Origin: a virus
Lineage: Duplodnaviria; Heunggongvirae; Uroviricota; Caudoviricetes
Virus record (IMG/VR): IMGVR_UViG_2721755643_000001
Strand: one strand, 5' to 3'
Length of the DNA: 42,956 bases
A model generated the notes under the pieces. That model saw nothing but the letters and a program-made list of their open reading frames with translations, made no database searches and had not been told where the DNA came from. A program made the position numbers and the translations under genes. Shown piece by piece: positions 2,452 to 19,191 of this stretch (its first letter is position 1; every line of letters starts with the position of its first letter).

Positions 2452-3525
2452 TCATTTGTCGATTTCAATTTTGTCCCATTCCCGTCCACGGCTGTCCCTA
2501 TACCGCGCCGCCATTGAATCTGATTTATGTCCGAGAAGACGTTGAGCAAATTTATCGCCAATCTGGTTCCGGTATAGCCTCGCTGACAGGCTACGCAGTT
2601 CATGGAATGTTGGCGGGTCTCCATCAAATGAGAGTCCGGAGGCATTTCTCGCCTTTGTAAAATACTTCGATACTGTTTTCGGGGAAAGCGGTTCGTGATG
2701 CGTTGAGGCGATTACAGTTTCACTGCCGCTGGCCTCCCTGCATTTCTGTAGTGTATCAACCAGTGAGATGTTGAGCGCGTCAATCGTTAGCGTCAGCGGA
2801 ATGGCAATCTTGGCTCCTGTTTTACCCTGCTCAATGTGAAGATGGTTGTCGTTTATGTCTGACCACTTCATTCTGCATAAATCGCCCACTCTCTGCCCTG
2901 TAATGACGGCCAAATCCATTGCCAGCCTCAGCCAGATAGGGAGAGGTTCGGCTGCATGGTAAATCTCGATATACTCATTAGCTGTAAGCCTTGAGCGCCT
3001 TACTTCTGACTTTGCTGTGCGGGTTGCTGTTACCGGATTCGTAGCCACATGCCCCTCGGCTATTGCTTCACGAAAAACGTCAACAAGGGTTGACCTGATT
3101 AATTTTGCGGAAGCCGCTTTACCTTCTGCTACGTAGGTGTTTAGCATTGCTGCCACCTCTTTCGTTGATATGTCATTGAGCGGTTTGTCCGGCAATTTTC
3201 TTCGAATCGCCCTGATTTTGCTGGCGTAGTCGAGTAGAGTTTTCGGTCTGATACCCCTCTCGCTGAGGATTGTTTCATATCGGTCAAGCCACGCATGAAG
3301 AGTGATTGCGTCAGCGCCTTTAATCCTGTCTATCAGTGACTCACGCCTGTTCTCAGATAGCAACTCAATATTGGCCTGAATAGCCTCTGAAACTGCTATC
3401 CTTCTGTCTCTGCCTAATCCGAACTCTTTACCCGTCCTTGGGTCCCTGTAGCAGTAATATCCATTGTTTCTTATATAAAGGTTAGGGGGTAAATCCCGGC
3501 GCTCATGACTTCGCCTTCTTCCCAT
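2452..3525 (-). CDS. int: Tyrosine integrase, lambda Int family
   Basis: 357 aa; N-terminus MGRRRSHERRDLPPNLYIRNNGYYCYRDPRTGKEFGLGRD and C-terminal HELRSLSARLY...LLGH...YRD motifs match lambda Int closely. Confidence 0.95.
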   Translation of the reverse strand: MGRRRSHERRDLPPNLYIRNNGYYCYRDPRTGKEFGLGRDRRIAVSEAIQANIELLSENRRESLIDRIKGADAITLHAWLDRYETILSERGIRPKTLLDYASKIRAIRRKLPDKPLNDISTKEVAAMLNTYVAEGKAASAKLIRSTLVDVFREAIAEGHVATNPVTATRTAKSEVRRSRLTANEYIEIYHAAEPLPIWLRLAMDLAVITGQRVGDLCRMKWSDINDNHLHIEQGKTGAKIAIPLTLTIDALNISLVDTLQKCREASGSETVIASTHHEPLSPKTVSKYFTKARNASGLSFDGDPPTFHELRSLSARLYRNQIGDKFAQRLLGHKSDSMAARYRDSRGREWDKIEIDK

Positions 3526-3721
3526 TTCTGATCCTCTTCAAAAGGCTACCTGTTACTGGTCGATTTAAGTCAACCTTTACCGCTGATTCGTGGAACAGAT
3601 ACTCTCTTCCATCCTTAACCGGAGGAGGGAATATCCTGCACTCGCGTACCCAGCGGCGAACCGTTTCCGGGTTCCGTGGACGTAACTGACGGGCGTTCCA
3701 TTCTTTGAGCGTCAAATACAT
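3503..3721 (-). CDS. xis: Excisionase, lambda Xis-like
   Basis: MYLTLKEWNARQ...RRWVRECRIFPPPVKDGREYLFHESAVKVDLNRP is near-identical to my recollection of lambda Xis; overlaps int start as in lambda. Start taken at the internal Met of track ORF 3503..3736. Confidence 0.9.
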   Translation of the reverse strand: MYLTLKEWNARQLRPRNPETVRRWVRECRIFPPPVKDGREYLFHESAVKVDLNRPVTGSLLKRIRNGKKAKS

Positions 3722-3825
3722 GTCATATCTCTGCAATATGACCGCCAGTAAATATACAGAATACTGGCGGGTGTGGTTGATTTTTAATAATCAGCTATGA
3801 AGTTCTAATCTGGATATAATGAAAT

Positions 3826-4014
3826 TCACGAGGACTGAAGTTTCTCGCAATTAAAATTTATCAGTTTTACTTTCTGCTCTCTGGAAACGCCTGCTTCTTT
3901 TTCCCCTGAGAGCATTTTTTCGCATTCTGATTTCGTTAGTTTTGTCTTTGAGTATCTTGTCCAGCTGGCAGGAGATCCACCTTCCTTTTCAATAGTGGCT
4001 GTAATTTTATACAT
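3826..4014 (-). CDS. Hypothetical small phage protein
   Basis: Track ORF 3826..4038; internal start at MYKITAT has a strong GGAGGTG Shine-Dalgarno 5 nt upstream. Confidence 0.5.
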   Translation of the reverse strand: MYKITATIEKEGGSPASWTRYSKTKLTKSECEKMLSGEKEAGVSREQKVKLINFNCEKLQSS

Positions 4015-4064: not shown

Positions 4065-5162
4065 TTACACCGGAATATTCTCATCGTATCCTGCTTGTTG
4101 CGTTTCGTTTTGTGTTTGTGGATCCGGGAATGCATATTCAACGCCTTCCAGTTCAATCCATAGTGCATTACGACCAGCTTTGATTGTCGGCCAGTCCATA
4201 CCTTTGATTCTTTCCCATGAGCGGGAGGTGAATGTTTTTTCCAGCAAATCAGCTTTTGCGCGTTTGGCGTCGTTACTGGTGCCCCCATGGTGCTTGTTGA
4301 GCAACTCGATAATTTCATCAAGTGCGATTTCTTTTGCACGCTTTTCTTTTAGCCATGTCGGTGTACCGTCGTTGGCAAATAATTCACTGTTATCCCGTGA
4401 GGTATCGATGCCGAGGTGTTCACCTCCCAGGTTAAGAAACTCGATATGAGGAAGAAAGTTTTTAAATGTTGGGTTTGAAAATACCTGTCCATCAATACGG
4501 GTGGAGCGATCTTTTAGTATTCTGGCGGTGCGCCACACCTGACCGGTTTCTATGTTCATTTGCTTCTCCATCTGGATCAGGATGGAGGGTTCATAACCGG
4601 TTTCTGTTTCTGCTTTCATTTTTATACCGGTTTTTGCCAACTGGCGTTTGCCATCATCACCTTCGAAAAAGTCATACTCATATCCTGCACGCCCGCACAT
4701 AATAATGTGCGCCTGACTGTTAACAAATCGATCGGTAAAGCGTCGCCACTCCTGTTTGAGCCACGCCCAGTCTGAAAATTCCAGTCCTCGTTTACGGTTT
4801 CGGCGTCTGGCATACTCGTCGCATAATCCGGTCCAGAAGTGACTGATGGAGTCGATGATCATTACGGAACCGCTGCTTTCCGCTTCATTAATGGCTTCAA
4901 GCAGATCAACAAACGAGCGGGTTTTTGCCGTAAATAATTCGATATTTTCCGCATCAAAGCGGGGTTTAACCCAGTCAGAGCCTGTTTCTGTGTCCAGAAA
5001 CATTACCGGGCGGTTACCAGCTTCAATTCCCCGTTGCCGCATAAGCATTACCAGACCAATAGCCAGTTCGCTTGCTGTGTAGGTTTTGCCGTCGCCAGCA
5101 AACCCCATAATTCCTGCTTTTAGATAGGCCTGTGTGTTTATTGCTCGTTGAAAAAGCGCCAT
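4065..5162 (-). CDS. RecA-superfamily ATPase (Sak4-like recombination protein, tentative)
   Basis: Walker A GFAGDGKT and RecA-type Walker B VMIIDSISHF; 365 aa; sits in the early-left recombination-gene position. Confidence 0.7.
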   Translation of the reverse strand: MALFQRAINTQAYLKAGIMGFAGDGKTYTASELAIGLVMLMRQRGIEAGNRPVMFLDTETGSDWVKPRFDAENIELFTAKTRSFVDLLEAINEAESSGSVMIIDSISHFWTGLCDEYARRRNRKRGLEFSDWAWLKQEWRRFTDRFVNSQAHIIMCGRAGYEYDFFEGDDGKRQLAKTGIKMKAETETGYEPSILIQMEKQMNIETGQVWRTARILKDRSTRIDGQVFSNPTFKNFLPHIEFLNLGGEHLGIDTSRDNSELFANDGTPTWLKEKRAKEIALDEIIELLNKHHGGTSNDAKRAKADLLEKTFTSRSWERIKGMDWPTIKAGRNALWIELEGVEYAFPDPQTQNETQQAGYDENIPV

Positions 5163-5467: not shown

Positions 5468-7382
5468 TGGTCACTCCAAAATTTTCAAGCTTGTTGGCAA
5501 TCATCATTGCGATGTCAGGGATTGCAGGCGCATAGGCTATGCACGCAGGATTCGCACATAAACCGTAAACCGCCGCAATCAACACCTGTTTTTTCCAGTT
5601 GAGTTCATCTTCGCCAGTTTCATTATTGCTATCATTATGCTGATCGCTGCCAGCGTTCTCCGGTAACAAATCATCAGCTTTTTCCGTTTTCTTCGGCTCT
5701 TCTTCCTGTGCTTCATCTGGTTTTTTTTCGTCAAAAGTTTCCTGATAAGTTGCGTCTCCCATCACCGCGCCACAGTCAGGGCAGTTATCCTCGCCAGTCT
5801 GATTGCAGGGTGTTCCCTCCTCCGGTTCGCTGTTCTGGTGCTGTTTATCTTCAGTCTGTCGCACTTCATTTTCCGTTTTTTTGACTTCATTTGAGGAGAT
5901 ATGATGACCGGGAATCCATTTCGGATCATTCGGGTCGCTAATCCCTTCAACAAATTCTCCGCGAGAGGCAGCCAGTAATTTGTCTGCATCGACAGGATTT
6001 TTGGGCGGAATGTTTTTCCGGGCTTCATGGAGTTCTGCCCGCAGTTCCTGATATTTCGCATCAACAGCATTTACCTGTGACTGAGCATCCAGCGGCTGCG
6101 TGTCCTGATGATGTTCAGTTGCATCCGGTTCCACTGTTTCAGCCGTTGCCTGTTCATCTGCCATTGCGCAAGATGGTTGCGGTTTTTCTTCATCATCCTG
6201 TTTTCCTTCTTCTGTTACACGCTGCGGCATCGGGGCAGAGGAGCGACCGCAGGCAATATCCACGATTTCCGGATCAGGGTTGGCATGATCGGTTTCAGTC
6301 AGTACCTTGTTCAGATATTCAGTGACGTGCGCGGGGATGACCTCGATCCCAATTGGTGCTTCTTTTACGGACGCAACCACGATGGCGCGGGAATAATCCA
6401 GCCCGCCAGGCATGGTGATGAATTTGTCGCGGAAAACAGAAAAGGGCGGTTTATTTTCAGCGATAATTTCCTCAATGCGTTTAGCGTGTGCCGGATGAAG
6501 GTTATAGATGTCCAGATCCATTGAACGGGCCAGTACGCCAGTGGCTACGTCGCGCGCCAGTGACGTCAGATCGTGTACGAAACCTTCGCCGCGATCGGTG
6601 AGGTTTCCGCCGCCAGCATTAGCACCGGAAGCCGTGCGAGTGATGTGTGAAACACGATTACCCTTCATCCACTCTTTTGTCAGCAGTCCTCGATCGGTGT
6701 AGTCAGCGTTCAGGTATGCTTCGAAAAAAGCAGTTATCAGTCCCAGGCTTGAATTACCAGGATTAGGGAAAACTTTGTCAGTGTCACGAACCAGTTTGTG
6801 GAGATCGCGAATTTCCAGCGGGTCGAGCAGGCTGGTTTTGTGGGAAACAGCCAGGGCAGTAACAGCCGGTAGTTCTTCAGCCCGAGCAATGTGTAATGCC
6901 TGGAGTCCGTCGCGTGAAACGTGCGTTACCGGTTTTTCGCTGCCGTGTTGAGCAAGCCAGCGAATGGGCAGTTCCTGACCGGAAACTGGCAGGAGCATGT
7001 TCTCCTCAATTTCTGTCATGTCTTCGCCGTTGACGTTGGTATTGTCAGTGCTGGCTGGTTTGTCCTGAACAGAGGGAGAAGATGCGATAAATACCATTGT
7101 GATGCCATCTTCCCCGCCTTTTTCGTAACGGTTGCAGAATTCCGTATCAAACACGCCTTCTGGCGGGAGGTCATCAACAACGGGCAAATTGACGTGAACA
7201 GGTTTTTTAAAGTCATCTTCATCGTAGCCTGCATCGTCAATCGCAACAGCACCACGGGAGATGGCAATGGATAATTTTTTCGCTTCAGCCCAGTAAAAAC
7301 CGCCTTTAATACCGAGGCGTTTTCTTACTTTGTCATTTTTTGCTTCGTAATACAGTGGGTAAACTTGTTTATCGGTGCTCAT
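5442..7382 (-). CDS. Large hypothetical early protein with acidic low-complexity C-terminal third
   Basis: 646-aa ORF; C-terminal region rich in D/E/Q/K/T/P (e.g. [33 protein letters not shown]); no motif I can assign. Confidence 0.8.
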
Positions 7383-8074: not shown

Positions 8075-8623
8075 TTATTTTAAAGAAAGTAATTGTTCCA
8101 CAGTCATATTTTTAATTGCGCCCCGGTTAACAAGAGTCCATCCCTGTTTTTCCAGATAAAACCGGAAAGTCTCCAGGGTACAGACCAGTGCGCCATCAGG
8201 AACGGTTTCGGTGAATTCGACATTGCCGAATTTGTCGAAGTGAACAACCAGAGTGCGACCATCACCCGGAATCATCTTGTCAGCAGGTGGGGTGTTATTC
8301 TGGCGCAGTTCGGCCTCCATGCGGTCGAACTCAGCAATGTAGGCTTCCTTGAATGCGGCGGCTTTTTTGCCAGTGAAGCCCATCACCAGGAAAACGAAGC
8401 CGTTTTTGGTGATTTGGTACATTGGGAGTTTGCGCCCGGTTGAGTCGGTGTATTCGCTCGCCTCAAAATTGAGGGCAGTAAATTTATCTGAGCATTCAAT
8501 ATTTGCGATGGCACGTAACACATTGTCGTGTCGTTTGTGGAAGAACTCTGCAACCGCAACAGACGTAGTGACAGCGCGACCGTTTTCTACGGTTACACAA
8601 GGGTGAGAAAGGGTAGTAGCCAT
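8075..8623 (-). CDS. Phage regulatory protein, Rha family
   Basis: Motifs FHKRHDNVLRAI and MYQITKNGFVFLVMGFTGKKAAAFKEAYIAEFDRME typical of Rha; start set at Met99 of track ORF 8075..8917 because the upstream part of that ORF contains a terminator hairpin. Confidence 0.75.
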   Translation of the reverse strand: MATTLSHPCVTVENGRAVTTSVAVAEFFHKRHDNVLRAIANIECSDKFTALNFEASEYTDSTGRKLPMYQITKNGFVFLVMGFTGKKAAAFKEAYIAEFDRMEAELRQNNTPPADKMIPGDGRTLVVHFDKFGNVEFTETVPDGALVCTLETFRFYLEKQGWTLVNRGAIKNMTVEQLLSLK

Positions 8624-8789
8624 GATGGCAGCCTCCGCGATGAATTTGATTAACTCACCACCGGAGGTAGCAATCTCATGGGTGGTGAGACGTACAGGGT
8701 TGCTACAACCGGTCATCACGGAACCCGGCCAGTCTTGCGACTGCCCCGCACGCCCCACCATAATTTGAATGTGGCTGTGCATTACGCAT

Positions 8790-8817
8790 AAAAAAACCGC
8801 CTGAGCGCGGTTATGCG
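8790..8817 (-). terminator. Rho-independent terminator-like hairpin upstream of the Rha gene
   Basis: Minus strand reads AACCGC-GCTCAG-GCGGTT followed by a T7 run; flanked by a CGCATA/TATGCG outer repeat. Confidence 0.55.
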
Positions 8818-8939
8818 CCGTGAATGACTTCGGGGTAGCAATCCCGGCACCCGTTTTATGAGGTGCAGGTGCACTATAATTCCACCCGTTCTGGTTTTCA
8901 ATAGCTACATTCAACATTTTCTCTTTCCTTTCATCACCG

Positions 8940-9094
8940 AAGTGAATTTTGTGATGCGGTGCCTGGTGCCTCCAGGTGACGTTAACCAGTTAACAATTAC
9001 AGTCGGCTTTCCCACCCAAACCAATAAGGACTAACATGACTTTTAACTGTGCCGCGTGCGCTTAGCCGCATTCACCGCATCACAAAATTCACTT
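8940..9094. repeat. Perfect 22-bp inverted repeat pair flanking about 111 bp
   Basis: AAGTGAATTTTGTGATGCGGTG at 8940-8961 and its exact reverse complement at 9073-9094; the interior has a CCTGG/CCAGG hairpin and GTTAAC palindromes. Confidence 0.8.
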
Positions 9095-9204
9095 TAAAAA
9101 GGGCGGACATCAGCCAGCAATGAAACTGATGCCGCCAAAATCCACTCATAAAGTTCATCATCGGTATAGTCTGGCGCGATGATGACGGGTTCTCGTTTCT
9201 GCAT
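9094..9204 (-). CDS. Hypothetical small early-left protein (36 aa)
   Basis: ATG preceded by GAGGA at 5-nt spacing; it is the C-terminal portion of track ORF 9094..9366; peptide MQKREPVIIAPDYTDDELYEWILAASVSLLADVRPF. Confidence 0.45.
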   Translation of the reverse strand: MQKREPVIIAPDYTDDELYEWILAASVSLLADVRPF

Positions 9205-9232
9205 ACTGATTCCTCGCGTGCTGTTTCGCTTA

Positions 9233-9361
9233 TCAGCCGTTAGATTTTGCCGAACTGGAAAGCGCCTGTTTAAATTCGCTGAAGCTGAGAGCTTCTTCGC
9301 CTTCGGCAAGGCCTTCGAAGTATTCTTCGTAAGCCTTTTCCATGATTGTGTCGAAATCCAT
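9233..9361 (-). CDS. Hypothetical small acidic early-left protein (42 aa)
   Basis: Not in the track (under 60 aa); ATG preceded by AGGTGAGTGA; peptide MDFDTIMEKAYEEYFEGLAEGEEALSFSEFKQALSSSAKSNG. Confidence 0.45.
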   Translation of the reverse strand: MDFDTIMEKAYEEYFEGLAEGEEALSFSEFKQALSSSAKSNG

Positions 9362-9362
9362 A

Positions 9363-9518
9363 TCACTCACCTGAGTTTCTTTCCAGCCAGCGACGCGCGC
9401 CAGCTTCGGTTTTAAACGTTTTGCTTTTGGTATAAGTCATGGCGGTGAACGTTCCATCCTGGTTGGGGAACACGCCACATACCAGAGATTCGTTGTTGCC
9501 AAGATCGATAGTATTCAT
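9363..9518 (-). CDS. Hypothetical small early-left protein (51 aa), first gene after the leftward promoter
   Basis: Not in the track; ATG preceded by GAGG; its stop sits inside the Shine-Dalgarno of the next ORF; peptide MNTIDLGNNESLVCGVFPNQDGTFTAMTYTKSKTFKTEAGARRWLERNSGE. Confidence 0.5.
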   Translation of the reverse strand: MNTIDLGNNESLVCGVFPNQDGTFTAMTYTKSKTFKTEAGARRWLERNSGE

Positions 9519-9689: not shown

Positions 9690-9750
9690 ATACAATCTAC
9701 AAATTAAAATTTAATTGGTCAATATATTTATTATTAAATTTGTAATTGCG
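9690..9750. promoter_or_regulatory. OL-like operator / leftward early promoter region
   Basis: AT-rich; the 15-mer ATTAAATTTGTAATT (9733-9747) recurs exactly at 10975-10989 in the repressor-cro intergenic region; inverted TACAAAT / ATTTGTA half-sites. Confidence 0.5.
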
Positions 9751-9790
9751 AACGATTGCATTAGTCCCAAAATGGGACTATCATGCAGTT

Positions 9791-10093
9791 ATGAAGATCA
9801 TCTCAGTTAAAACACTCAGGGATTTTTGGGCGGAGAATCCCGATGCAGAACAACCGCTAAGGGCATGGGTGGATGAGGCAGCAAAAGCTGACTGGAAAAG
9901 CCCGGCAGACATTAAGGCACAATACCGAACGGCTAGTATATTGAAAAGCCGGCGTGTGGTATTCAACATAAAAGGTAATCATTACCGTTTAATTGTTGCA
10001 ATTGCGTATCAGCGAGGATGGGTATTTGTTAAATTCATCGGAAGCCACAAGGAATACGATGCCATTGATGCTGATACCATCGAACTGGAGTAA
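9791..10093 (+). CDS. higB: Type II toxin, HigB/RelE-like mRNA interferase
   Basis: About 100 aa, MKIISVKTLRDFW...YRLIVAIAYQRGWVFVKFIGSHKEYD resembles HigB; toxin-first order, 2-nt gap to an HTH antitoxin. Confidence 0.75.
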   Translation: MKIISVKTLRDFWAENPDAEQPLRAWVDEAAKADWKSPADIKAQYRTASILKSRRVVFNIKGNHYRLIVAIAYQRGWVFVKFIGSHKEYDAIDADTIELE

Positions 10094-10095
10094 GC

Positions 10096-10455
10096 ATGAA
10101 CATCAAACCTATTCGTACAGAGCAAGATTATGAAGCCGCGTTGCGTGCTGTTGAGCCTATGTTCGACAATGAACCGGAAATTAACACGCCTGAGGGGGAT
10201 TTCTTTGAGGTGATGTGTTTGCTAATAGAGGAATATGAAAAAAAACATTATCCCATTGAGCCACCATCCCCAATTGAAGCTATAAGATTTCGCATGGAAC
10301 AGCAGGGGCTGACCGTGAAAGATTTGGAACCCGCAATTGGGAAAAAAAATCGGGTTTACGAGGTGTTGAATGGCACCAGAAGCCTTACGTTACCAATGAT
10401 TCGCCGTCTTCATAATCAATTTGGTATCCCCTTGGAAAGCTTGGTGGGATTATAA
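10096..10455 (+). CDS. higA: Type II antitoxin, HigA-like (XRE-type HTH)
   Basis: 119 aa immediately downstream of the toxin; C-terminal HTH-like segment GLTVKDLEPAIGKKNRVYEVLNG. Confidence 0.75.
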   Translation: MNIKPIRTEQDYEAALRAVEPMFDNEPEINTPEGDFFEVMCLLIEEYEKKHYPIEPPSPIEAIRFRMEQQGLTVKDLEPAIGKKNRVYEVLNGTRSLTLPMIRRLHNQFGIPLESLVGL

Positions 10456-16632: not shown

Positions 16633-16917
16633 CCTGGTCTGAAGCATTCACAACGGTAGGAATCGCACTGGCGGTGGTGGTGTATTCGATTTGCCGCTGG
16701 GGATAAAAACGGTTTGCGGGAAAAGGAGAGTTAAGTAGAATTGCAGCGGGTGCTTGAGGCTATCTGTCTCAGGCATGAACACCAAAAGGCAGATAGAGAA
16801 AAGCCCCAGTTAACATTACGCGTCCGGCAAGACGCTTAACATTAATCTGAGGCTCAATCTATGAACGGCAAATCTAGGTTAGCCTCTTACGTGCCGAAAG
16901 GCAAGGAGAAGCAGGCT

Positions 16918-17073
16918 ATGAAGCAGCAAAAGGCGATGTTAGTCGCCCTGATCGTCATCTGTATTACCGTCATTGTGACGGCACTGGTAACGAGGAAAGA
17001 CCTCTGCGAGGTACGAATCCGAACCGGCCAGACGGAGGTCGCTGTCTTCACAGCTTACGAACCTGAGGAGTAA
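16918..17073 (+). CDS. Hok/Gef-family type I toxin
   Basis: 51 aa; MKQQKAMLVALIVICITVIVTALVTRKDLCEVRIRTGQTEVAVFTAYE parallels Hok (TM helix, conserved RK.LCE.R and EVA.F.AYE); AAGGAGA Shine-Dalgarno. Confidence 0.75.
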   Translation: MKQQKAMLVALIVICITVIVTALVTRKDLCEVRIRTGQTEVAVFTAYEPEE

Positions 17074-18883: not shown

Positions 18884-18960
18884 GGCCCTTTAGCTCAGTT
18901 GGTCAGAGCGAGCGACTCATAATCGCCAGGTCGCTGGTTCAAGTCCAGCAAGGGCCACCA
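18884..18960 (+). tRNA. tRNA with CAT anticodon (Ile2-like, ileX/ileZ type)
   Basis: Cloverleaf with 7-bp acceptor GGCCCTT/AAGGGCC, anticodon loop CTCATAA, T-arm GCTGG-TTCAAGT-CCAGC, encoded CCA; close to my recollection of E. coli ileX. Confidence 0.8.
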
Positions 18961-18961
18961 A

Positions 18962-19038
18962 CCACCACTAGCTCATCCGGATAGAGCATCAACCTTCTAA
19001 GTTGACGGTGCGAGGTTCGAGTCCTCGGTGGTGGGCCA
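18962..19038 (+). tRNA. tRNA-Arg (anticodon TCT)
   Basis: Acceptor CCACCAC/GTGGTGG, D-arm GCTC...GAGC, anticodon stem TCAAC/GTTGA with loop CTTCTAA, T-arm CGAGG-TTCGAGT-CCTCG, encoded CCA. Confidence 0.85.
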
Positions 19039-19040
19039 GC

Positions 19041-19116
<76 letters not shown>

Positions 19117-19119
19117 TAT

Positions 19120-19191
<72 letters not shown>

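Follow-up and report, generated by a model that had tools for sequence, protein, structure and literature searches.

What is the role of a perfect inverted repeat that encloses just over 100 nucleotides (nt) between the early genes of a tailed-phage genome? We asked this of positions 8940-9094 of IMG/VR virus record IMGVR_UViG_2721755643_000001 (Duplodnaviria; Heunggongvirae; Uroviricota; Caudoviricetes), a DNA of 42,956 nt, the whole of which is called the window below. An initial annotation, made from the letters alone, had reported a perfect 22/22 repeat pair unlikely to arise by chance in 43 kb, with small palindromes inside it, and had offered three readings (a processed structured RNA, a pair of regulator binding sites, or a miniature inverted-repeat element), naming minus-strand RNA folding, covariation among relatives and a search for other copies as checks. 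According to our analysis, the transcribed strand of the element is the minus strand, and its best explanation, which we hold to be probable as a whole, is that the arms pair with each other as an extended closing helix (P1) that clamps a structured core of about 110 nt, and that this P1-closed RNA sits in the early-left operon of a prophage with its helix most likely serving as a substrate of RNase III. The feature is real but largely ordinary: it is a routine part of a mosaic lambdoid prophage rather than a new kind of system, and a sub-threshold new member of a known prophage RNA family.

The repeat search returned arms at 8940-8961 and 9073-9094 that are complementary at 22 of 22 positions (100%) with 111 nt between them, and no perfect inverted repeat with a loop of up to 200 nt is longer anywhere in the window. 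The longest inverted repeat in each of 100 dinucleotide-preserving shuffles measured 10-14 nt, so both the perfection of the pair and its improbability stand as first described. On the minus strand, a 163-nt stretch containing the element folds at -63.1 kcal/mol (z -5.5 against shuffles), and on the plus strand at -58.6 kcal/mol (z -6.4); since both strands fold far better than shuffled sequences, folding energy cannot identify the functional strand. The interior palindromes proved to be helices P2, P5 and P6 and a pseudoknot. Escherichia coli K-12 has two copies of the element, one in Rac, immediately upstream of kilR, and one in Qin, between dicF and dicB, and the window copy combines segments of both types. 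Its parts, in the direction of transcription, are:

9073-9094, minus strand: 5' arm of P1, AAGUGAAUUUUGUGAUGCGGUG; 22/22 pairing, with 9 of the 22 pairs changing on both sides in relatives (alignment A5)
9070-9072, minus strand: junction J1/2, AAU, nearly invariant (the motif GGUGAAU is kept in 44-47 of the 47 copies of alignment A2)
9054-9069, minus strand: P2 hairpin, GCGGC-UAAGC-GC[A]CGC, with five pairs, a one-nucleotide bulge and the conserved loop U-N-N-G-C
9043-9049, minus strand: 5' strand of the pseudoknot, CAGUUAA, with its partner at 8987-8993
9003-9042, minus strand: variable region, of Rac type here and wholly different between subgroups (alignments A1, A4 and A5; Rac/Qin comparison)
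8996-9002, minus strand: 5' strand of P5, CUGUAAU, of Rac type; its partner in K-12 Rac is GUUGCAG
8987-8993, minus strand: 3' strand of the pseudoknot, UUAACUG, in the P5 loop; the centroid fold pairs it with 9043-9049
8980-8986, minus strand: 3' strand of P5, GUUAACG, of Qin type; its partner in Qin-type copies is CGUUAAU
8962-8979, minus strand: junction J5/6, UCA, and P6 hairpin, CCUGG-AGGCA-CCAGG, the most conserved part of the family (search-pattern match at 8958-8979)
8940-8961, minus strand: 3' arm of P1, CACCGCAUCACAAAAUUCACUU, found by the repeat search, the helix search and alignment A5

The interior of the element was analyzed in alignment A2, which holds 47 diverse representatives. 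Its 3' motif was fixed by the search pattern, so the invariance of that motif in A2 is not evidence; the motif (P6) is nevertheless kept in copies retrieved via the P2 motif, and the GGUGAAU side of the element was left free by the pattern. RNAalifold recovers the nested helices P1, P2, P5 and P6 from A2, with compensatory changes at 13 of the 21 pairs. P2 pairs 16-31, 18-29 and 19-27 alternate among C-G, G-C and U-A with 99% of cells paired, and the middle pair of P6 switches from U-A to G-C among relatives. The pseudoknot was found by reading the sequences, in which the segment after P2 is complementary to the P5 loop. Its strands differ by subfamily (CCAGUC/GACUGG, CUGGUG/CACCGG, AUCAGC/GCUGGU, CUAGGC/GUCUAG and ACUGGAUA/UAUCCAGU, against CAGUUAA/UUAACUG in the window), all six of its pairs in A2 show changes on both sides, and the complementarity has a median of 6 bp within a sequence as compared to 4 bp between sequences. 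With the pseudoknot included, 88.1% of the cells in A2 pair, against 69.5% in shuffles (0/500) and 38-46% in slid controls, and the covariation score is 0.474 against 0.154 in shuffles (0/500). The 47 copies support this predicted pseudoknot, which is absent from the Rfam consensus structure, along with P1, P2, P5 and P6.

The closing helix is where the window copy and its closest relatives stand apart. P1 is about 8 bp long in the main family and reaches 20-30 bp in 22 of the 29 distinct arm combinations (counted by an anchored helix search) of the subgroup with a GCGGC-type P2. The arm sequences differ and the helix is kept in Citrobacter (21 bp), Lelliottia (22 bp) and Buttiauxella (20 bp), and compensatory changes are also seen within Escherichia, from GUGA/UCAC to GCGA/UCGC (locus L057) and from U-A to G-C (locus L051). 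These arms were compared in the bulge-free alignment A5, replacing the MAFFT alignment A4, which was out of register in the 3' arm for the window and three distant genera because Rac-type copies carry a bulged A. Across the helix 95.1% of the cells in A5 pair, and the whole structure has 15 pairs with changes on both sides, as compared to 6.9 in shuffles (0/500). Cells of the helix that are not Watson-Crick pairs comprise 73 G·U and 6 A·C; this ratio would reverse on the opposite strand, so selection acts on the minus-strand RNA. Covariation of the arms and interior helices, together with wobble pairs that favour the minus-strand RNA, thus speaks for the first of the three initial readings, a processed structured RNA.

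In Qin-type copies the predicted helix continues to 28-30 bp, in which the upstream terminator's U-tract and 3' stem are paired with the dicB Shine-Dalgarno sequence (K-12 Qin, locus L006, 5776-5960, in its minimum-energy fold); this suggests that dicB translation would be masked in the unprocessed read-through RNA of these copies. In the minimum-energy fold of the window copy, a downstream purine-rich stretch pairs only weakly with the U-tract.

For E. coli RNase III, a perfect RNA helix of 22 bp is a canonical substrate, and the window has such a helix of about two turns (at least 20 bp) on the transcribed strand. We propose that RNA polymerase would read through the terminator of the DicF-like RNA directly upstream of the element and so transcribe the element on the minus strand, and that the long helix would then be cut in its middle by RNase III. 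Through the cut, the read-through DicF-like RNA would acquire a defined 3' end, like that of the 72-nt DicF of K-12 Qin, the core would be excised or destabilised, and upstream RNA and downstream message would be parted; the Shine-Dalgarno sequence of that message would, in dicB-type copies, be paired within the same extended helix. A third copy of GUGAUG stands at 8932-8937 (minus strand), just after the 3' arm, and can pair with CAUCAC in that arm; the downstream RNA would begin with this small hairpin if the long helix were cut.

RNase III enters through published work on the K-12 homologue. As quoted in PMC5069750 and PMC9438474, Faubladier et al. (1990) attributed a 72-nt DicF to full-length dicBF RNA being processed by RNase III, and a 53-nt RNA to termination. 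In K-12 Qin (L006) the end of the 53-nt RNA is at about 5781, and the element's 5' arm occupies 5788-5809; if the two species share their 5' end, as the mapping assumes, the 72-nt species would end 19 nt further, at about 5800, which is nt 13 of the Qin 5' arm. Since the reported 72-nt DicF would end inside this arm, RNase III processing of read-through transcripts is most likely, and it is apparently in the Qin counterpart of our element that the dicB operon is cut by RNase III, as described in 1990. By homology with Qin, a cut in the window copy is predicted near 9082, and RNase III dependence of the window copy, by analogy with the K-12 homologue, is most likely as well. Table S1 of Gordon et al. 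(2017) has an entry between dicF and dicB (position 1649470) with 26 reads in an rnc mutant and 0 in either wild-type replicate, marked as a known site; it falls in P2 of the Qin copy, about 17 nt beyond the cut deduced above. The kilR-sieB entry of the same table (1418510) lies outside the element, some 50 nt upstream of the DicF-like RNA of Rac.

Several points weigh against this explanation. The cut position is deduced from RNA lengths quoted in secondary sources, and the signal at 1649470 is weak, its reads standing among many similar low-coverage entries (Gordon et al. 2017). A 2023 study of dicBF places RNase III at the 5' side of DicF only (a 190-nt species) and detected no long read-through transcripts. 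In the window the 22-bp helix ends before reaching any ribosome-binding site, and a promoter-like site belongs to the downstream module itself, so a role in translation control is not evident there. The window copy scores below the Rfam gathering score (34.1 against 47 bits), and its core may be impaired or weakened, with P5 mismatched and the closing helix perfect. The G·U and covariation counts given above are counts of cells and not of independent events.

To which family does the core belong? It matches Rfam family RF02076 (STnc100) at 8948-9089 on the minus strand (34.1 bits, E-value 2.1e-5, model positions 21-154 of 206), and like the window copy the whole GCGGC-type subgroup, at 31.9-45.1 bits, lies below the gathering score of 47. 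Scores for this family form a continuum, from 207.7 for the copy downstream of stx2B in VT2-Sakai, through 138, 83 and 59 in Fels-1 and 79.9 in a Klebsiella phage, to those of the GCGGC subgroup. According to Infernal alignments and the A2 pair counts, the window copy has the features of the STnc100 core (P1, AAU, P2, P5, UCACC, P6 GGAGGCACC and CACC). The family's own terminator (about model positions 155-206) is missing, and in the window no terminator follows the element within 128 nt. Judged by sequence and predicted structure, the element core is a divergent, terminator-less relative of STnc100/PasD/EcOnc27. The relatives are prophage small RNAs (sRNAs) associated with Hfq, namely PasD1 and PasD2 in enteropathogenic E. 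coli and EcOnc27/sRNA103 in O157; family members have been detected as RNAs of 80-240 nt, and a discrete Hfq-bound RNA is known for PasD and EcOnc27 only.

Most family members have an intrinsic terminator 24-39 nt after the domain (160-170 nt in Klebsiella phages), and the next gene after such terminated copies is a holin gene or a large gene starting about 270-290 nt downstream (in VT2-Sakai, a hypothetical gene after stx2B). Some members have a sigma-70 promoter at P1. In Klebsiella phage ST846-OXA48phi9.1, P1 is preceded at 7 nt by a sigma-70 promoter (TTGACG-18-TAAATT), the domain is followed by a strong terminator (3808-3825), and the holin gene, downstream of Q, starts at 4011, an arrangement in keeping with a late leader RNA that extends from the late promoter as far as its terminator. 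With terminated relatives in late leaders, the window copy is a terminator-less variant, its promoter undetected, inside an early operon.

Some relatives show peculiarities of their own. Fels-1 (L132) has three tandem STnc100-type copies between Q and the holin genes (3072-3285, 3486-3608 and 4609-4827), and two IMG/VR contigs (L017 and L072) have three copies each within 1-4 kb. In copies of the Stx-phage type (L010, L018, L023 and others), P2 and the following terminator have the same 3' strand, GGAGGGGC, so that the two could exchange partners in this subfamily; the other subfamilies do not share this. In L018 the 5' strand of P1 is repeated just after P1.

Copies of the element are common. 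Of 5426 complete E. coli genomes searched with a 175-nt query, 4641 have the element; the median is 2 copies per genome and the highest number 9. When IMG/VR was scanned for the conserved 3' motif, more than 120 loci came up, and these yielded 94 distinct copies; a scan of genome contigs with a 17-base pattern returned mostly chance matches in GC-rich genomes, and the rest of the element was present in the enterobacterial matches only. Phages P7 and D6 have the inner ~125 nt in the ban operon, flanked by tRNA genes and tciA and lacking the outer arms. A tRNA-Sec-like gene lies upstream of both copies, at about 110 nt (P7, L007 3229-3313, 46.6 bits; D6, L008 3234-3318, 43.1 bits); the D6 record annotates it as tRNA-Ser with a UGA anticodon. 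A small open reading frame (ORF) of 15 codons in the variable region of the window copy (MLVLIGLGGKADCNC) was considered and rejected: start codons are not conserved in position in Qin, P7 and D6, and none has a Shine-Dalgarno sequence.

What surrounds the element in the window? Positions 8700-9300 match three E. coli chromosomes at 100%, and the identical RefSeq locus reads, in minus-strand order, DUF1391 (ydfA-like), ydfB, truncated ydfC, a 'Rha family' ORF, ydaE and recE. The locus is the early-left (dicBF-type) operon of a Rac/Qin-type lambdoid E. coli prophage. The neighbouring features are:

9233-9518, minus strand: homologues of ydfA, ydfB and truncated ydfC, small early genes on one flank of the element
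9096-9150, minus strand: DicF-like sRNA with its intrinsic terminator and U-tract, directly upstream of the element on the transcribed strand
8901 to 8873, minus strand: sigma-70-like promoter TTGAAA-17-TATAGT (consensus scan), preceding the IsrK/C4 module
8827-8879, minus strand: a1/b1 target sites of C4 (Rfam)
8790-8866, minus strand: IsrK-like RNA (Rfam)
8678-8765, minus strand: C4 antisense RNA (Rfam)
8075-8917, minus strand: 'Rha family' ORF of 280 amino acids (annotation of the identical locus)
9746-10455, 3830-4008, 16748-16923 and 18884-19190, plus strand: toxin-antitoxin, antitoxin RNA and tRNA side features (HigB/HigA, RalA, sok, tRNAs)

The placement between the small early genes and the Rha gene, as first noted, is borne out by the genes at 9233-9518 and the Rha ORF. 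The Rfam DicF match at 9101-9150 (minus strand) scores 43.3 bits against a gathering score of 48 (E-value 8e-8); its terminator hairpin (9133-9106, minus strand) is followed by CGCCCTTTTT, and the U-tract ends at about 9096. The initial annotation also placed a terminator-like hairpin after the element on the minus strand. A hairpin does lie downstream (8812-8795), and it is the first one there, but it is part of the IsrK-like RNA, at a distance of 128 nt, and the terminator that adjoins the element, that of the DicF-like RNA, lies upstream. The repeat itself is no intrinsic terminator: its 3' arm is followed by CGGUGAUGAAAGG rather than by a U-run, and the terminator scan around the element lists only the DicF-like and IsrK-like terminators. 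With the DicF-like terminator on one side and the IsrK/C4 promoter on the other, the element fills the gap before a module that resembles the immI region of phage P1.

We note a few further observations on these neighbours. The DicF-like RNA of the window is a variant of DicF whose 5' (seed) part is unlike that of K-12 DicF, and in K-12 Rac a similar DicF-like hairpin lies upstream of kilR (L003 2663-2718, minus strand, 39.1 bits), where the fetched record has no feature. The layout of promoter, C4 with its target sites, and antirepressor is what resembles the phage P1 immI region. The Rha ORF overlaps the IsrK-like RNA, the C4 target sites, the C4 antisense RNA and the sigma-70-like promoter; the Pfam domain Phage_pRha covers only its residues 117-201, the Pfam domain 'Ash' (PF10554) covers residues 14-104, over the RNA genes, and the N-terminal third of the ORF probably does not code for protein. 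Between the ydfA-like gene and the repressor gene of the window lies an inserted toxin-antitoxin pair, HigB/HigA; the window also contains two antitoxin RNAs (RalA and sok) and four tRNA genes.

Given these relatives and neighbours, could the element be a stand-alone gene for a trans-acting, Hfq-dependent sRNA like STnc100/PasD/EcOnc27, with the arms merely part of its fold? The homology to a family detected as Hfq-bound RNAs of 80-240 nt favours this, but most relatives have a terminator and some a promoter at P1, and the window copy has neither: the consensus scan found no promoter upstream of the element, its sole promoter-like site (8901 to 8873) being downstream, and the next terminator is the IsrK-like one 128 nt off. 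We therefore consider a separate sRNA gene rather unlikely; a discrete RNA could still arise by processing, in which case this explanation merges with that of a P1-closed, RNase III-processed RNA.

Another possibility is that the pseudoknotted core is a sensor or catalyst (a riboswitch-like aptamer, a protein decoy or a self-processing RNA) that gates the downstream genes, with P1 as the switching or closing helix. The complex fold, the pseudoknot and the near-invariant junction and loop nucleotides would suit such an RNA, as would what comes next, which varies between copies (a terminator in late leaders, a ribosome-binding site in early operons) and the Klebsiella phage copies placed right after the late promoter. 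Against it, we found no ligand, cleavage site or conserved alternative pairing, and a perfect P1 of 22-30 bp is too stable for a switch; that no Rfam family other than STnc100 matches the core is uninformative either way. For the window element we judge this quite improbable. That the core shared with STnc100/PasD/EcOnc27 is an aptamer or catalytic fold (a self-processing one, or one that binds a metabolite, host machine or phage protein) gating late/lysis genes, where the core stands after the late promoter and ahead of its terminator, and the division inhibitors kilR, dicB and tciA is, taken by itself, unlikely.

The composition of the window copy raises a further question, whether the element is a DNA-level homology patch (a module boundary or linker) for recombination among lambdoid phages, with the RNA fold incidental. 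The first 111 nt of the window copy are of Rac type, with one difference from K-12 Rac, and the last 44 nt are of Qin type, the junction lying inside the element at about 8984-9000 (minus strand). As a result, the Rac-type P5 5' strand CUGUAAU faces the Qin-type GUUAACG and P5 has two mismatches. Since the window copy is a Rac/Qin recombinant, the element is a recombination site between prophages. In addition, the element stands at the junctions of unrelated modules (dicB, kilR, Rha/C4, tciA in P7 and D6, and the gene downstream of stx2B), and in phage PhiR12_3 homology stops at the element edge. A homology patch, however, predicts conservation of sequence, yet compensatory changes are abundant, including those in the pseudoknot and the long helix, and only one strand shows the G·U excess. 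The conservation probably led to the recombination and not the other way round, and we regard the homology patch as a very improbable explanation.

As for a miniature inverted-repeat transposable element, one of the initial suggestions, the 22-bp terminal inverted repeats, the length of 155 bp and the presence of up to 9 copies per genome are what one might expect. The flanks, CCCTTTTTA and CGGTGATGA, share no direct repeat that would indicate a target-site duplication, and every copy examined is in phage or prophage DNA and co-oriented with the operon rather than scattered; the median of 2 copies per genome is what a few lambdoid prophages would give, and only the inner 8-9 bp of the arms are present in P7 and D6. 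We sought an empty site and found none: PhiR12_3, which has the DicF terminator and no element, loses homology at TTTTTAAAGT, with unrelated DNA downstream. The chance that this is a transposable element is close to negligible.

Operators for a DNA-binding regulator, formed by the arms (the other initial suggestion) or by the inner GTTAAC palindromes, would fit the palindromic symmetry and the regulatory region of a prophage, but are hardly credible in view of the covariation and of a G·U excess confined to one strand: from genus to genus the arms change in sequence and stay paired, imperfect pairs are almost all G·U on one strand, and the arm spacing varies with the variable region.

What does the P1-closed RNA add to what is known of these prophages? 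The new points are descriptive: the 3'-side RNase III processing of DicF described in 1990 is linked to the STnc100/PasD/EcOnc27 family, and we describe the pseudoknot, a subgroup with a closing helix of 20-30 bp and the recombinant nature of the window copy. Annotation is blank at this feature even in K-12 (between dicF and dicB, and upstream of kilR), and the Rfam threshold misses the whole subgroup. The structure model of the family, including the pseudoknot, is testable. If the processing model holds, the helix would set the amount of long-form DicF-like RNA made from read-through, and in dicB-type copies also the amount of the toxic downstream product. If instead the core were an aptamer or a catalyst, it would represent a widespread class of regulatory RNA: of the complete E. 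coli genomes searched, about 85% have it, K-12 included.

How, then, does the element compare with known systems? The put RNAs of phage HK022 are likewise structured phage-leader RNAs, and family members of the element in Klebsiella phages stand directly after a promoter. A put-type antiterminator was considered and rejected, as a scan of the HK022 genome found none of the element's motifs and the window copy follows a terminator, not a promoter. The two also differ in that members of the element's family precede terminators and are detected as RNAs of 80-240 nt, which is consistent with termination there.

With STnc100 (RF02076), the element shares the helix order P1, P2, P5, P6, the location in prophages and the conserved motifs GGUGAAU and UCACC-NGGAGGCACCN-GGCACC. 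The window copy differs from it by a GCGGC-type P2, by the lack of its own terminator and of a promoter detected by the consensus scan, by a P1 of 22 bp rather than about 8 bp, and by its place in an early-left operon after DicF instead of the late or moron region.

The RNase III sites of the phage lambda pL operon (the N leader and sib) and the early processing signals of T7 are long hairpins in polycistronic transcripts that are cut to set ends and to alter the stability or translation of neighbouring genes. They offer an analogy in mechanism, and no sequence relationship was found or is claimed; the lambda and T7 sites are simple hairpins with internal loops, whereas the helix studied here closes a pseudoknotted domain of 110 nt.

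A close counterpart is the dicF-dicB site of Qin. The window copy has a Rac-type variable region and P5 5' strand, its P1 is a perfect 22 bp as compared to 21 bp with G·U pairs, extended to 28-30 bp, in Qin, and it is followed by a promoter and the IsrK/C4/Rha module instead of dicB, with no ribosome-binding site inside the helix. The 5' arms differ at 1 of 22 positions and the 3' arms at three, and 128 of the 158 aligned positions are identical. Both copies come directly after the U-tract of a DicF terminator, and both have the same helices and pseudoknot.

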